From contig JAKFXT010000002.1 in the NCBI GenBank assembly GCA_021731245.1, positions 24,164-88,163 on the forward strand: 64,000 nt of DNA, in the 5' to 3' direction. Numbering within the stretch: the first letter of the stretch is position 1; each line of letters starts with the position of its first letter. This DNA is from Patescibacteria group bacterium (GTDB lineage: Bacteria; Patescibacteriota; Minisyncoccia; Phycocordibacterales; JAKFXT01). Of the stretch, positions 4,191 to 6,513 are shown piece after piece. A model generated the notes under the pieces. It was not told the DNA's origin. It saw only the letters and a list, made by a program, of their open reading frames with translations, and did no database searches. The position numbers were made by a program, and so were the translations under genes.

Positions 4191-4331
4191 TGGATCCCGT
4201 AGTAGAAAATGGCATTAGAGGAAGGCGGGGGATACAAAATATTACAATGGAGTCGAATATTAAAAGCAGAATTAATTTGAGTGGTCATATTGCTCTATAA
4301 AAGAGCGATGCCATTTTTCACTACCGGATGG
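4191..4331 (+). repeat. Copy 1 of a ~140-bp inverted-repeat-flanked element. Its last bases form the atpB start codon.
   Basis: Left arm TGGATCCCGTAGTAGAAAATGGCATTAGAG and right arm CTATAAAAGAGCGATGCCATTTTTCACTACCGGATGG form a ~28-bp imperfect inverted repeat. The element ends ...CACTACCGGATGG with the ATG at 4328. Confidence 0.85.
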
Positions 4332-5074
4332 ACCATATTCACATATCACTTGCGGCCGAGAAAATAGGCGAAATAGCAGGATTTCCCATAACTAACGCTC
4401 TTTTAATGTCTTTGATTGCGACGGCTATTTTGACCACATTTGCTTTTTTACTCCTAAAAAATATAAAACTTATTCCAAGTCGATTGCAAACGGCAGGAGA
4501 AATGGTGGTAGGAGGGATTTATTCATACACAGCAACAACCTTAGAAAGTGAAACAATGGCTCGTAAGTATTTCCCAATAATAATTACAATTTTCTTTTTT
4601 GTATTAATTTCAAATTTTTTACATTTTCTACCTGGAGTTGGAAGCATTGGATTTTACTCTGAAGATCATGGAGTTAAGGTCTTTGAGCCACTTTTCCGAT
4701 CAGCGAGTACTGACCTTAATGTCACTCTGGCTCTCGCTTTGATTGCTTTCTTTACTATTCAAACAGCTGGTGTAAAAGCTTTGGGACTTTTTTCATATTT
4801 AGGTAAATTTTTCAATTTCAAATCTCCTTTAGGTTTTTTTGTTGGCATGATAGATTTGTTTTCGGAACTCGCTCGTCTTATATCATTTTCTTTCAGATTG
4901 TTCGGTAATATTTTTGCAGGAGAAGTTATTATTGCTGTTATTATATTCTTTGTTCCCGTGATATTGCCGGTTCCCTTGATGGCGTTTGAAGTGTTTGTGG
5001 CACTGATTCAGGCGGCCGTATTTGCTTTACTTACTCTATTTTTTATTAAAGTAGCAGTAACGGAGCATCATTAG
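4328..5074 (+). CDS. atpB: F0F1 ATP synthase subunit a
   Basis: Multi-TM protein with the conserved C-terminal R-containing helix (SFRLFGNIFAGE). First gene of the atp operon. Confidence 0.9.
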   Translation: MDHIHISLAAEKIGEIAGFPITNALLMSLIATAILTTFAFLLLKNIKLIPSRLQTAGEMVVGGIYSYTATTLESETMARKYFPIIITIFFFVLISNFLHFLPGVGSIGFYSEDHGVKVFEPLFRSASTDLNVTLALALIAFFTIQTAGVKALGLFSYLGKFFNFKSPLGFFVGMIDLFSELARLISFSFRLFGNIFAGEVIIAVIIFFVPVILPVPLMAFEVFVALIQAAVFALLTLFFIKVAVTEHH

Positions 5075-5141
5075 AAGGTCGATTATTATTATTTCCGCCA
5101 TAGGCGGACCAGCTTGTGGCTGGAGTTAAAACAAAAAATTT

Positions 5142-5369
5142 ATGGATATTGAAGTAGCAAAGACACTAGGAATGGCATTAGCCGTTGGTCTTGGTGTTAT
5201 AGGTCCTGGTATTGGTATTGGTCTTATTGTGGCTCGTGCCCTTGAAGCTATTGGACGAAACCCAGAAGCATCAGGAAAGATTCAAGCAACTATGTTCATT
5301 GGTATTGCCTTTACTGAAGCTCTTGCGGTTTTCGCTTTGGTTATCGCTTTTATCGTGAAGTTCGTGTAA
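5142..5369 (+). CDS. atpE: F0F1 ATP synthase subunit c (proteolipid)
   Basis: 75-aa two-helix hairpin with a glycine-rich helix 1 ([12 protein letters not shown]) and the conserved carboxylate helix (FTEALAVF). Confidence 0.9.
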
Positions 5370-5401
5370 TTAAGTAAAATAGTCAGATTAAAAAATAAAA
5401 A

Positions 5402-5541
5402 TGGAATCCTGTAGTAGAAAATGGCATTAGAGAGAAAGTGAAAATATAAAAAATTATGTTAAAGTCGAATATTAGTAATTTAATTAAAATAAACTGGTAA
5501 CAGCTCTCTAAAGAGCGATGCCATTTTTCACTACGGGATGG
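5402..5541 (+). repeat. Copy 2 of the inverted-repeat element. It ends on the atpF start codon.
   Basis: Same terminal arms as copy 1 (…GTAGTAGAAAATGGCATTAGAG … AAAGAGCGATGCCATTTTTCACTACGGGATGG). Its internal ~60 bp are nearly identical to copy 3. Confidence 0.85.
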
Positions 5542-5984
5542 AAGAATTAGCTAAAGTATTTGGTGTAGATTGGAAGCTCCTTTTGGTGCAGCTAATTAAC
5601 TTTGGTATTTTGCTTTTCATTTTGCAAAGGTTTCTTTATAAGCCACTACTTAAAATAATTGATGATAGGAAAGCTATTGTTGAAAAAGGAGTGGGGGATG
5701 CAGAGGAAGCGAAGGTTGCATTAGAGAAAGCCGGAGAAGAAAGTAGTTTAATAGTTGATGGCGCTAAAAAGGAGGCGCGCGACTATTTAAACACTACTAA
5801 GAATGACGCCGCTTTAATTAAAGAAAAGATTATGGCGGATGTAGAAAAGGAGAAAGAGAGAGTGTTAAAAGAAGCGGCAATTTCTGCAAAGAGAATGGAG
5901 GAAGAGGCGATTTTGAAATCAAAAGAATCAATTTCTAAAATGGCTGTTCTCGCAGCAGAAAAGATATTGAAGGAGAAACACTAG
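5538..5984 (+). CDS. atpF: F0F1 ATP synthase subunit b
   Basis: N-terminal TM helix followed by a long charged coiled-coil (E/K/A-rich). Operon position between atpE and atpH. Confidence 0.8.
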   Translation: MEELAKVFGVDWKLLLVQLINFGILLFILQRFLYKPLLKIIDDRKAIVEKGVGDAEEAKVALEKAGEESSLIVDGAKKEARDYLNTTKNDAALIKEKIMADVEKEKERVLKEAAISAKRMEEEAILKSKESISKMAVLAAEKILKEKH

Positions 5985-5985
5985 T

Positions 5986-6369
5986 ATGAATAAATATCTT
6001 TTAGCTGATGCTCTAATAATGAAAGGAAAGGAATCCGCGAGCTCACTCGAGCATTTCCTCACTAAGTTGAATTCTTATTTGAAGGAAACACATAGAGAGA
6101 AACTTCTTAAAGATACACTCCTACTTTTAAAGTCAAAAAGAATTAAGTCACAAAATAATGCCAAAATTCTAAGCTCTAAAGAACTTACTGAAAAAGAAAT
6201 AAAAAATATAAAAGAAAAGCACGAAGATATTTTAAAAGAAAAGAATTTGATTTACGAAATAGATAAAGATTTAATCGGAGGGTACAGAATTGAGACGATA
6301 AACACTAGAGTGGACACCACATATAAAAGAGAACTCAGTGATTTGTACCAGCTTATGAGTAAAGAGTAA
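5986..6369 (+). CDS. atpH: F0F1 ATP synthase subunit delta (OSCP), unusually short at 127 aa
   Basis: Position between atpF and atpA. C-terminal motif ...LIGGYRIETINTRVDTTYKRELSDL resembles the delta C-terminal domain. The N-terminal domain appears reduced. Confidence 0.6.
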   Translation: MNKYLLADALIMKGKESASSLEHFLTKLNSYLKETHREKLLKDTLLLLKSKRIKSQNNAKILSSKELTEKEIKNIKEKHEDILKEKNLIYEIDKDLIGGYRIETINTRVDTTYKRELSDLYQLMSKE

Positions 6370-6374
6370 AAATA

Positions 6375-6513
6375 TGGATCCCGTAGTAGAAAATGGCATT
6401 AGAGAATGGTAGAAAATATAAAATATTATGATAAGGTCAAACATTAGTAATTTAATTAAAATAAACTGGTAACTTGCTCCAAAAGAGCGATGCCATTTTT
6501 CACTACAGGATGG
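6375..6513 (+). repeat. Copy 3 of the inverted-repeat element. It ends on the atpA start codon.
   Basis: TGGATCCCGTAGTAGAAAATGGCATTAGAG … AAAAGAGCGATGCCATTTTTCACTACAGGATGG, with the ATG at 6510. Confidence 0.85.

Follow-up and report, generated by a model that had tools for sequence, protein, structure and literature searches.

Hairpin elements on the start codons of ATP synthase genes in a patescibacterial genome: probable members of a mobile DNA family that inserts at start codons

Why should a single ATP synthase operon carry three copies of one hairpin-forming sequence, each of which ends exactly on the start codon of a different gene? The question is raised by a stretch of 64,000 nucleotides from a Patescibacteria group bacterium (GenBank assembly GCA_021731245.1, contig JAKFXT010000002.1, positions 24,164 to 88,163; the window, in what follows, is the whole of this stretch). 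An earlier note, made from the letters of the window alone, described the three copies in front of atpB, atpF and atpA and saw in them either a translational control or processing site or something like a MITE (miniature inverted-repeat transposable element) whose insertion had supplied the 5' ends of the genes. Judging from the comparisons that we set out here, the three copies are probably non-autonomous, MITE-like members of a family of mobile elements that inserts at start codons in the ultra-small Patescibacteria.

Insertions at the start codons of atpB, atpF and atpA

According to the list of open reading frames (ORFs), the F-type ATP synthase operon of the window (4328-10589) comprises atpB, atpE, atpF, atpH, atpA, atpG, atpD and atpC, and three elements of 132-134 nt lie on the plus strand directly 5' of the ATG of atpB, atpF and atpA. 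On either side of each of them stands the start-codon region, repeated in direct orientation (ATGGA, ATGGAA and ATGGA, respectively), with an ATG at the left end as well, and this repeat is one of two features that go beyond what the earlier note had seen. Copy 1 (TCCCGTAGTAGAAAATGGCAT...ATGCCATTTTTCACTACCGGA, 4195-4328) follows a left ATGGA at 4190-4194 and its final A is the A of the atpB ATG, so that atpB itself (ATP synthase subunit a, 4328-5074, plus strand; an ORF whose orthologues match Pfam ATP-synt_A) opens with the right ATGGA (4328-4332). Copy 2 (5407-5538) follows ATGGAA at 5401-5406 and shares its final A with the start codon of atpF (subunit b, 5538-5984, plus strand), the first six bases of which are the right ATGGAA (5538-5543). 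Copy 3 (6379-6510) follows ATGGA at 6374-6378, 4 nt past the atpH stop, and ends in the same manner on the A of the atpA ATG (subunit alpha, 6510-8051, plus strand; right ATGGA at 6510-6514). With slashes for the element boundaries, the junctions read tATGGA/TCCCG...CCGG/ATGGAcc in copy 1, aATGGAA/TCCTG...CGGG/ATGGAAga in copy 2 and tATGGA/TCCCG...CAGG/ATGGAtg in copy 3.

The near-identical ends described before are borne out by a left core of 22 nt (GTAGTAGAAAATGGCATTAGAG) and a right core of 23 nt (AGAGCGATGCCATTTTTCACTAC), which are invariant and occur exactly three times each in the 64 kb; with up to three mismatches there are still only three occurrences per core, against an expectation of 0.00 from shuffled sequence. 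That the arms form an imperfect inverted repeat is likewise correct, since they are 86% complementary over 22 nt within each copy and a long stem is predicted on folding (z-scores of -2.2, -6.7 and -3.5 for copies 1, 2 and 3). Copies 2 and 3, said to share their interior, are mutual closest relatives (83% identity ungapped, 89% gapped), and copy 1 has diverged to ~76% identity with either; its own nearest relative (85% identity) stands at a different gene in another genome (L010).

That we are dealing with insertions emerges from the atp operons of three relatives of the window's AtpA, namely L207, L208 and L209 (89%, 86% and 77% AtpA identity). In L209 all three sites are empty and read ...tttatttaaaATGGAtcatattcac at atpB, ...attgttgtATGGAAgaagttgtc at atpF and ...aacaaatATGGAtgaaaaaac at atpA, which is exactly the sequence of the window's flanks with a single repeat (ATGGA or ATGGAA). 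L207, by comparison, carries a diverged copy at atpA. No element precedes atpA in L208 (2880-2915), where a footprint-like 'atttttaacggg' / 'atttttaacgggATGG' before the ATG looks like the remnant of a deleted element, and a member of another subfamily (TCCCGTTAGAAGTCGCT...AGCGACTTTCTAATGGG/ATGAA), its left repeat decayed, precedes atpB (L208:560-745). The atpE-atpF and atpG-atpD spacers of L208 hold inserts of 240 and 130 nt that are unrelated. Members of the family are insertions, and relatives differ in whether a given site is filled or empty. The left repeat is intact in all of 15 orthologous pairs, including those whose upstream 40 nt have an identity of no more than 43-60%. Where orthologous sites are filled, the interior is about as conserved as the first 60 nt of the host gene (0.82 v 0.83 in L016/L034, 0.89 v 0.90 in L066/L083 and 0.92 v 0.95 in L019/L113), and the upstream 40 nt of the first two pairs are only 50-59% identical, which suggests that either the interior is constrained or elements were exchanged recently.

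A search for the arms beyond the window, as the earlier note had advised, shows how widespread the family is. One genome per bacterial species was scanned for the two arm cores at a spacing of 75-105 nt, which gave at least 119 further loci in at least 42 assemblies, often several per assembly, and the assembly titles of the first 80 loci listed are all of Patescibacteria (Paceibacterota, Nomurabacteria, Parcubacteria and others, some labelled Saccharibacteria). Members have complementary arms, outer ends of the form (T/C)CCCGTAGT...ACTAC.GGG(A/G) and a variable interior, and the outer ends ATCCCGTAGTA and ACTAC.GGGAT are conserved although the search pattern did not demand them. A flanking repeat that contains ATG, together with a long ORF from its right copy, accompanies 84-89 of 121 copies; the repeats are of many types (e.g. 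ATGAA, ATGGA, ATGTA, ATGCA, ATGAGT, ATGGGA) and their variable bases agree between left and right. About 90% of the family copies are located at a start codon with such a duplication. By their N-terminal peptides the hosts are unrelated genes, with Topoisomerase I, SMC and MurG recurring across genomes, and tandem arrays are found in L001, L026, L109, L012, L077 and L098.

How much of the start codon does the element itself provide? Its final base, always a purine, doubles as the first position of the start codon that follows. In L041 and L076 the left repeat contains GTG and the right one ATG, and L175 and L177, whose ends are C...G instead of T...A, read ATGAA on the left and G/TGAA on the right; the duplication proper is therefore TGAA, TGGA or TGNNA. 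For the family as a whole the target duplication is 4-5 bp long and includes the TG of the start codon (TGRA, TGNNA, ATGA or TATG), ATGA and TATG being given by other end types. Since conversions from GTG to ATG and from ATG to GTG are both seen, the end base of the element supplies the first base of the start codon, and to this extent the earlier idea that insertion furnished the 5' ends of the genes was right; for the rest, the start codon is duplicated from the target.

Relatives with other habits exist. The duplications TTTG, TCAA, TTTAC, TCAAG, TATAA and TATGG belong to a sister variant (CCCCGTCACTAG...CAGTGCGGGG) and to short relatives with a length of 66-75 nt, so that the sequence demand of the enzyme seems loose. 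Three of the short relatives (L026:4885-4955, L035:1663-1733 and L038:2451-2525; 66-75 nt) have the same outer ends and a compensatory core, GATTTTGGCAT...ATGCCAAAATTC in place of GAAAATGGCAT...ATGCCATTTTTC; one adjoins, in tandem, a 135-nt copy at a start codon; two occupy sites without ATG (TCAA, TATGG). We also considered whether the small internal ORFs encode a conserved peptide and rejected this, as subfamilies disagree in the frame of these ORFs with respect to the conserved GTCGAA motif. Searches of viral contigs by DNA pattern and by nuclease relatives (see below) found no family member.

Measured against what defines a MITE, the family has a size below ~400 bp without a transposase gene, terminal inverted repeats, duplications with filled and empty sites, and dispersed copies. 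Together with the occurrence in many genomes and a larger partner with the same termini, these traits uphold the MITE-like option of the earlier note. What sets the family apart is that partner: an autonomous element with the same ends and a transposase of a known insertion sequence (IS) family was not found, and the partner encodes a GIY-YIG nuclease and no DDE, HUH, serine or tyrosine enzyme.

The coding partner and the pairing of its arms

The second feature beyond the earlier note is a 320-nt relative within the window itself, so the statement that no other copies occur in the 64 kb is correct for the subfamily of the atp copies and incorrect for the family. This larger element (CCCCGTAGTAGAATTTCAGTT...AACTGAAATTTCACTACAGGG, 61618-61937, minus strand) has the termini CCCCGTAGTAG...CACTACAGGG and is flanked by ATGA at 61941-61938 and at 61617-61614. 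Read 5' to 3', it runs aaagaaATGA/CCCCGTAGTAGAATTTCAGTTCGATT-ATG...(92 codons)...AAC TGA-AATTTCACTACAGGG/ATGA/TAGCT. Within it lies the gene for a 92-aa GIY-YIG nuclease (61633-61911, minus strand; Pfam PF01541, E 3.9e-17), and the right copy of ATGA provides the ATG of the host gene, which encodes an RNase T/DnaQ-like exonuclease (61024-61617, minus strand). The earlier description of the element as non-coding holds for the three atp copies, whose interiors contain only short, non-conserved ORFs; it does not hold for these larger members nor for the sister variant, which is translated in frame in pilin leader peptides.

More than 660 homologues of the nuclease were found, the best 120 of which are 68-100% identical (nearly all 68-85%) and 85-104 aa long; all those with a named source among these 120 come from Patescibacteria. 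A metagenome scan by protein similarity alone, in which the arms were no part of the search, listed 80 loci, 76 of them analysable. At least 57 of the 76 have an ATG-containing duplication, and in 61 a host ORF of at least 40 codons begins at the right copy, with the nuclease gene co-oriented. The nuclease gene starts ~5 nt past the left arm without a Shine-Dalgarno (SD) motif of its own and stops in close relation to the host ATG, namely 4 nt past it (an ATGA overlap) in 8 loci, 14-15 nt before it in 23 and 20-23 nt before it in 29. No other gene was found between arms in ~1.1 Mb of loci. Short and coding elements meet in L128, where a 140-nt short copy stands in tandem with a coding element, and GIY-YIG genes adjoin short copies in L001, L026 and L062.

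The aligned family proteins are 86-98 aa long and consist of the catalytic domain plus one or two basic helices, and the GIY-YIG core residues are invariant in 26 aligned sequences. Profile comparison matched the UPF0213 structures 1zg2 (3.6e-6) and 1ywl (5.9e-6) as well as SLX1 (4.5e-4), and a predicted model of good quality (predicted local distance difference test, pLDDT, 90) returned 1zg2 as the best Foldseek match, followed by Slx1 (6seh and 7cq3), at a template modelling (TM) score of 0.6 and root-mean-square deviations of 1.3-2.2 A. I-TevI is a weaker match than UPF0213/Slx1 in sequence and fold alike, and a group I intron endonuclease model scores 24 bits at a cut-off of 56. As far as profiles and a predicted fold can tell, the nuclease is closest to the UPF0213/Slx1 type. 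It has the catalytic GIY-YIG domain of homing endonucleases, and neither a separate DNA-binding domain for a long site nor a single homing site in one gene was found.

What, then, is selected in the arms? Covariation of the stem, which the earlier note had singled out as a check, is pronounced in the protein-found loci: pairing holds in 94.9% of cells, both sides have changed in 14 of 20 pairs, none of 500 shuffles reaches any observed measure and slid alignments are 29-52% paired. Inner arms differ between subfamilies yet remain complementary (GAATTTCAGTT/AACTGAAATTTC, GATTTTTAATT/AATTAAAAATTC, GAATTTCCAATT/AATTGGAAATTTC, GAGAAATTTCGAAT/ATTCGAAATTCTTC), and the outermost bases covary, too, with CCC/GGG replaced by GGG/CCC in L139, L186 and L049. 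Because the arms covary so strongly, the pairing itself is under selection. Every stem has one A.C and one G.U next to each other, 10-11 bp from the base and in either order (34:13; 4204-4205 with 4318-4319 in copy 1), and the order is reversed in roughly one in ten short copies and one in four coding elements, independently of the orientation of the interior. L044 and L103 show 'GG' intermediates of this tandem mismatch.

Outside the fixed site, G.U pairs on the sense strand (18) are not commoner than A.C (29), and sense RNA as the selected hairpin was rejected on this comparison, which shows no bias. A DNA hairpin or cruciform, equal on both strands, therefore fits better, and the pattern points to such a structure rather than to sense RNA. 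It would also suit a nuclease related to Slx1, a cutter of branched DNA.

Start codons and the expression of host genes

What sets the reconstructed targets apart from ordinary ORF starts in these genomes is a purine at +4 (89% vs 68%) and an A at +5 (95% vs 38%), and nothing else; the targets of unrelated hosts share only the ATG and these two positions. ATGRA is found in 931 kb of loci 306 times at crude ORF starts, 996 times elsewhere outside long ORFs and 3931 times inside ORFs; a sequence preference combined with loss of intragenic insertions predicts ~23% of copies at starts, while ~90% are observed. Three accounts, which do not exclude one another, may explain the preference: true targeting of start regions, descent solely from those coding copies that lie behind a host promoter and start signal and can thereby express the nuclease, and retention where the insert is harmless.

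Harmless retention is illustrated by a C/G-ended sister variant that sits inside each of two adjacent pilin-like genes (L084:5076-5861 and L084:6511-7293), in frame, without stops and with the duplication TTTAC. It is inserted exactly at the prepilin cleavage motif and duplicates it (...ILGGFT-[QLLENGIV...MPFFSAG]FT-LVELMV), and the 45 extra residues would leave with the cleaved leader peptide. An ORF just upstream in L084 (4228-5070) looks like a prepilin peptidase.

As for the signals in front of the targets, 42% of them have a -10-like hexamer whose end falls 4-9 nt short of the left ATG (peak at 6-7 nt) as compared with 18% of crude control starts, and SD-like motifs are rare (6% of targets, 11% of crude control ORF starts). 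Among gene starts in general, in L001-L119 and the window, the ends of -10-like hexamers peak sharply at 6 nt before the ATG. Given this peak and the few SD motifs, many genes are of the leaderless type. A transcription start at the site itself is not required, however, since copies 2 and 3 of the window are internal to the operon.

How could a host gene be expressed from behind such an insert? The upstream ATG keeps its native context, be it a promoter and 5' end or coupling to the preceding gene, as at atpA with its ATG copy so close to the end of atpH. The ORF that begins at the left ATG crosses the left arm without a stop in 83 of 84 short copies; in 75 of the 84 it terminates in the interior, and in none of them is it fused in frame to the host ORF. 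This open ORF, the nuclease ORFs that end by the host ATG and the left repeat kept in all 15 orthologous pairs lead us to favour a relay from the retained upstream ATG. The element would thereby rely on the host's promoter and initiation signals, which are still attached to that ATG; ribosomes starting there would enter the left arm and melt the stem, and translation would be handed over to the intact host gene by re-initiation or by exposure of the downstream AUG. In coding elements it would be the end of the nuclease ORF, 4 nt past or 14-23 nt before the host ATG, that passes translation on.

As part of our main reading, which we consider probable, the arms would act as a DNA hairpin or cruciform and be recognised by the structure-specific nuclease, which would mobilise the coding elements and, in trans, the short copies. 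In the atp operon the three copies would accordingly be tolerated passengers that place atpB, atpF and atpA behind a ~25-bp stem, and not an evolved regulator of ATP synthase. We also put forward a wider proposal with a confidence that falls slightly short of even, namely that the family represents a new class of bacterial mobile element. Its sole protein would be a minimal GIY-YIG nuclease of Slx1/UPF0213 kind, with the DNA hairpin of the element itself as its substrate. Integration would be specific for start codons, with TG(N)NA duplicated and the first base of the start codon supplied by the element, and expression would proceed from the upstream ATG by relay or RNA processing. The 140-nt atp copies would then be non-autonomous derivatives.

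Several points weigh against the main reading. The arms of the 140-nt family (GAAAATGGCAT) were not found on any coding element seen, and the coding partner shares only the outer ~10 nt of its ends with the short copies. Blocks of ATTATGTT, AAAGTCGAA and AAACTG recur by eye in the same order in the short-copy interior and the nuclease gene, and gapped alignment adds nothing clear past the termini; homology between the two, and with it an origin of short copies by internal deletion, is no more than suggested. GIY-YIG nucleases are not known as transposases, and a stagger of 4-5 nt is not known to be their usual cut. The specificity for start codons could stem from selective retention instead of targeting, considering that the sister variant has the duplications TTTAC, TCAA and TTTG, and the gene calls of the control are crude. 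The open frame through the left arm is largely due to the fixed sequence of the arm, which makes it weak support for a relay, and the left side of the relay is not uniform between duplication classes. Finally, ~94 of 102 short copies have an interior that points the same way as the host gene, also when the asymmetry of the arms is flipped, which suggests some RNA-level role or an oriented integration that our account does not cover.

The element may have a consequence at the level of RNA, be it coupling or processing. In the main rival to the relay the hairpin would be an RNA processing site or intervening sequence: the stem would be cut (in the manner of RNase III and without religation) and leave an mRNA that begins with the AUG or a few bases ahead of it, which these organisms can translate without an SD motif. 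The start codon would be the one place where excision without ligation does no harm, so this explanation is compatible with mobility and differs only in how host expression is rescued. A stem of at least 25 bp that ends exactly at the AUG is what it would need, the tandem mismatch fixed 10-11 bp from the stem base in every member could position the cut, and many hosts are of the leaderless type, given -10-like hexamers at 42% of targets and SD-like motifs at 6%. It is consistent, too, with reported insertions in rRNA genes of the Candidate Phyla Radiation (CPR) that encode GIY-YIG proteins and resemble neither group I nor group II introns, rRNA insertions in general being removed from transcripts (PMC11270868). 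Against it speaks that the RNA stem is not visibly selected, as judged by the missing sense-strand wobble bias, that 0 of 20 atypical loci checked with Rfam lie in rRNA, and that the left ATG copy, intact in 15 of 15 orthologous pairs, is left without explanation. We consider RNA processing of this kind unlikely.

Other explanations, known systems and significance

Compared with our proposal of a nuclease-driven element, a more conservative one would be an ordinary MITE moved by a conventional transposase that is encoded elsewhere, with the GIY-YIG gene as a passenger or as an independent homing-type gene nested in the hairpins. Terminal inverted repeats with duplications of 4-5 bp are after all the classical signature of such elements, GIY-YIG enzymes are not known to catalyse transposition and the arms of the 140-nt family have not been seen around the GIY-YIG gene. 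Yet most of the 76 nuclease homologues found by protein sit between such arms at a start codon, no other gene does so in the ~1.1 Mb of loci, and inner arms that are free to change as long as pairing is kept, along with outermost bases that covary, would be unusual for ends bound by a transposase. When a transposase-sized element was sought through orphan arms in the loci, none turned up, only the relatives of 66-75 nt. We therefore rate a conventional transposase as improbable.

More improbable still is a dedicated cis-regulatory RNA (an attenuator, thermometer or riboswitch-like device) that balances the ATP synthase subunits. The presence of three copies in one operon, each at a start codon, invites this idea, as does an alternative pairing in which UAGAG after the left arm would pair with GCUCU of a local hairpin. 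This hairpin, GCTCT-ATAAA-AGAGC in copy 1 (4292-4306, plus strand), lies just 5' of the right arm; such a hairpin is found beside the right arm in 79 of 121 copies vs 23% of shuffles, with varied, covarying stems. With the CCATTTTT that follows (window 4288-4320 and 6474-6500) it scores as terminator-like in copies 1 and 3, and the long stem and the local hairpin compete for one and the same U run, an attenuator-like arrangement. An intrinsic terminator or attenuator made of local hairpin and U run was nonetheless rejected as a general feature, the upstream partner UGGCA not being conserved in all subfamilies. Against a regulator peculiar to ATP synthase, the same element stands at unrelated gene starts, topA, smc and murG among them, in dozens of genomes; all three atp sites are empty in L209 and presence varies in other relatives; the closest kin of copy 1 is found in another genome and not in copies 2 and 3; and the target duplications mark insertion events. 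Nor does Rfam, its atp-operon motifs and self-splicing introns included, know such a family, with no match at gathering score in the whole window and nothing relevant at E up to 5 in 3700-7000. A control or processing site dedicated to the atp operon, as the earlier note had contemplated, thus finds no support as the origin of the element. An assembly artefact from collapsed or chimeric reads, for which only the crowding of the repeats into one 2.3-kb stretch could be cited, can be dismissed, because the three copies are not identical, independent assemblies from different pipelines contain the family as well and orthologous sites are filled in L207 and empty in L209; it is these empty and filled sites, with the closer kin of copy 1 in another genome, that exclude both artefact and atp regulator as the origin. 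Apart from the element, a GC-rich hairpin between atpB and atpE (ccgccataggcgg, window 5085-5143) gave a sub-threshold Rfam match to the Pseudomonas small RNA P9 (19 vs 43 bits), most likely by chance.

Does the family resemble anything known? Selfish inserts that survived because expression gets past them, with matching short flanking repeats, include the palindromic elements of Rickettsia, which lie in frame in genes, and bypass inserts such as T4 gene 60 and the mitochondrial byps; in the T4 mobA/gene 60 cassette a nuclease gene even goes together with an insert past which the ribosome has to move. Our main family differs from these in that it is not translated in frame, nothing shows hopping and only the sister variant of L084 is read through.

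Correia elements (CREE) of Neisseria, ERIC and the Nezha MITEs come closer in that they are 100-160 nt long, with hairpin-forming terminal inverted repeats, short duplications, many copies, filled and empty sites and co-transcription with neighbours; they share their ends with DDE-type insertion sequences, though, and are scattered between genes, with TA duplicated by Correia and ERIC (PMC3184786). The present family, unlike them, is ~90% on start codons, duplicates the start codon, lets its inner arms covary freely and has only a GIY-YIG nuclease between its arms. REP/REPIN sequences are dispersed short hairpins as well, and related hairpins flank the small RAYT gene, the enzyme of which is thought to mobilise them in trans, but RAYTs are HUH/Y1 enzymes related to TnpA of IS200/IS605, make no duplication and are linked to repeats that lie mostly downstream of genes (PMC2817692, PMC3116915). 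In our family the fold is GIY-YIG, with no HUH/Y1 enzyme found, duplications are present and the sites are start codons. Palindromes derived from IS200/IS605 (PATE), too, make no duplication and insert 3' of a fixed tetra- or pentanucleotide, in contrast to the matching ATGAA, ATGGA, ATGTA and ATGCA duplications seen here.

The free-standing and intron-encoded GIY-YIG homing endonucleases such as I-TevI and T4 Seg have the domain in common with our nuclease, within a selfish insert that relies on transcription of the host gene, and differ from it by a long DNA-binding domain and one long cognate site (PMC2988022); ours is a bare domain of 86-98 aa found at many unrelated gene starts with only ATGRA in common. 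REP2 of Neisseria and inverted repeats of Borrelia lie immediately upstream of genes and include the ATG start, yet they bring along promoter, ribosome-binding site and ATG (PMC3184786), whereas in the present family the signals of the host stay upstream of the insert and the ATG that is duplicated is the host's own.

In the literature we found no description of an element that duplicates start codons or of a hairpin repeat linked to a GIY-YIG nuclease, in a search outside of which most subscription journals lie, and the family is apparently undescribed. It belongs with mobile DNA of the hairpin or MITE type that has an enzyme-coding partner, and there is a fair chance that it will deserve a class of its own once mobility and the role of the nuclease are shown.

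What does this mean for Patescibacteria? Mobile DNA is normally excluded from the bases most critical for expression. The present family, in very small genomes, occupies the start codons of genes that one would expect to be essential (ATP synthase subunits, topA, smc, murG). Gene callers are misled about start sites by its inserts, which also give rise to spurious small ORFs, change start codons from GTG to ATG and the reverse, and in one variant extend the leader peptides of pilins. The inserts make testable, in uncultured bacteria, how an AUG is used that lies right behind a 25-bp stem and 130-330 nt from its native initiation signals. Should the specificity for start codons prove to be mechanistic, the family would choose its targets in a manner not described so far, to our knowledge; should mobility require the ~90-aa structure-specific GIY-YIG nuclease, a further class of enzyme would join those that move DNA, and some of the short proteins in Patescibacteria that are annotated as 'GIY-YIG nuclease family protein' would gain a function.

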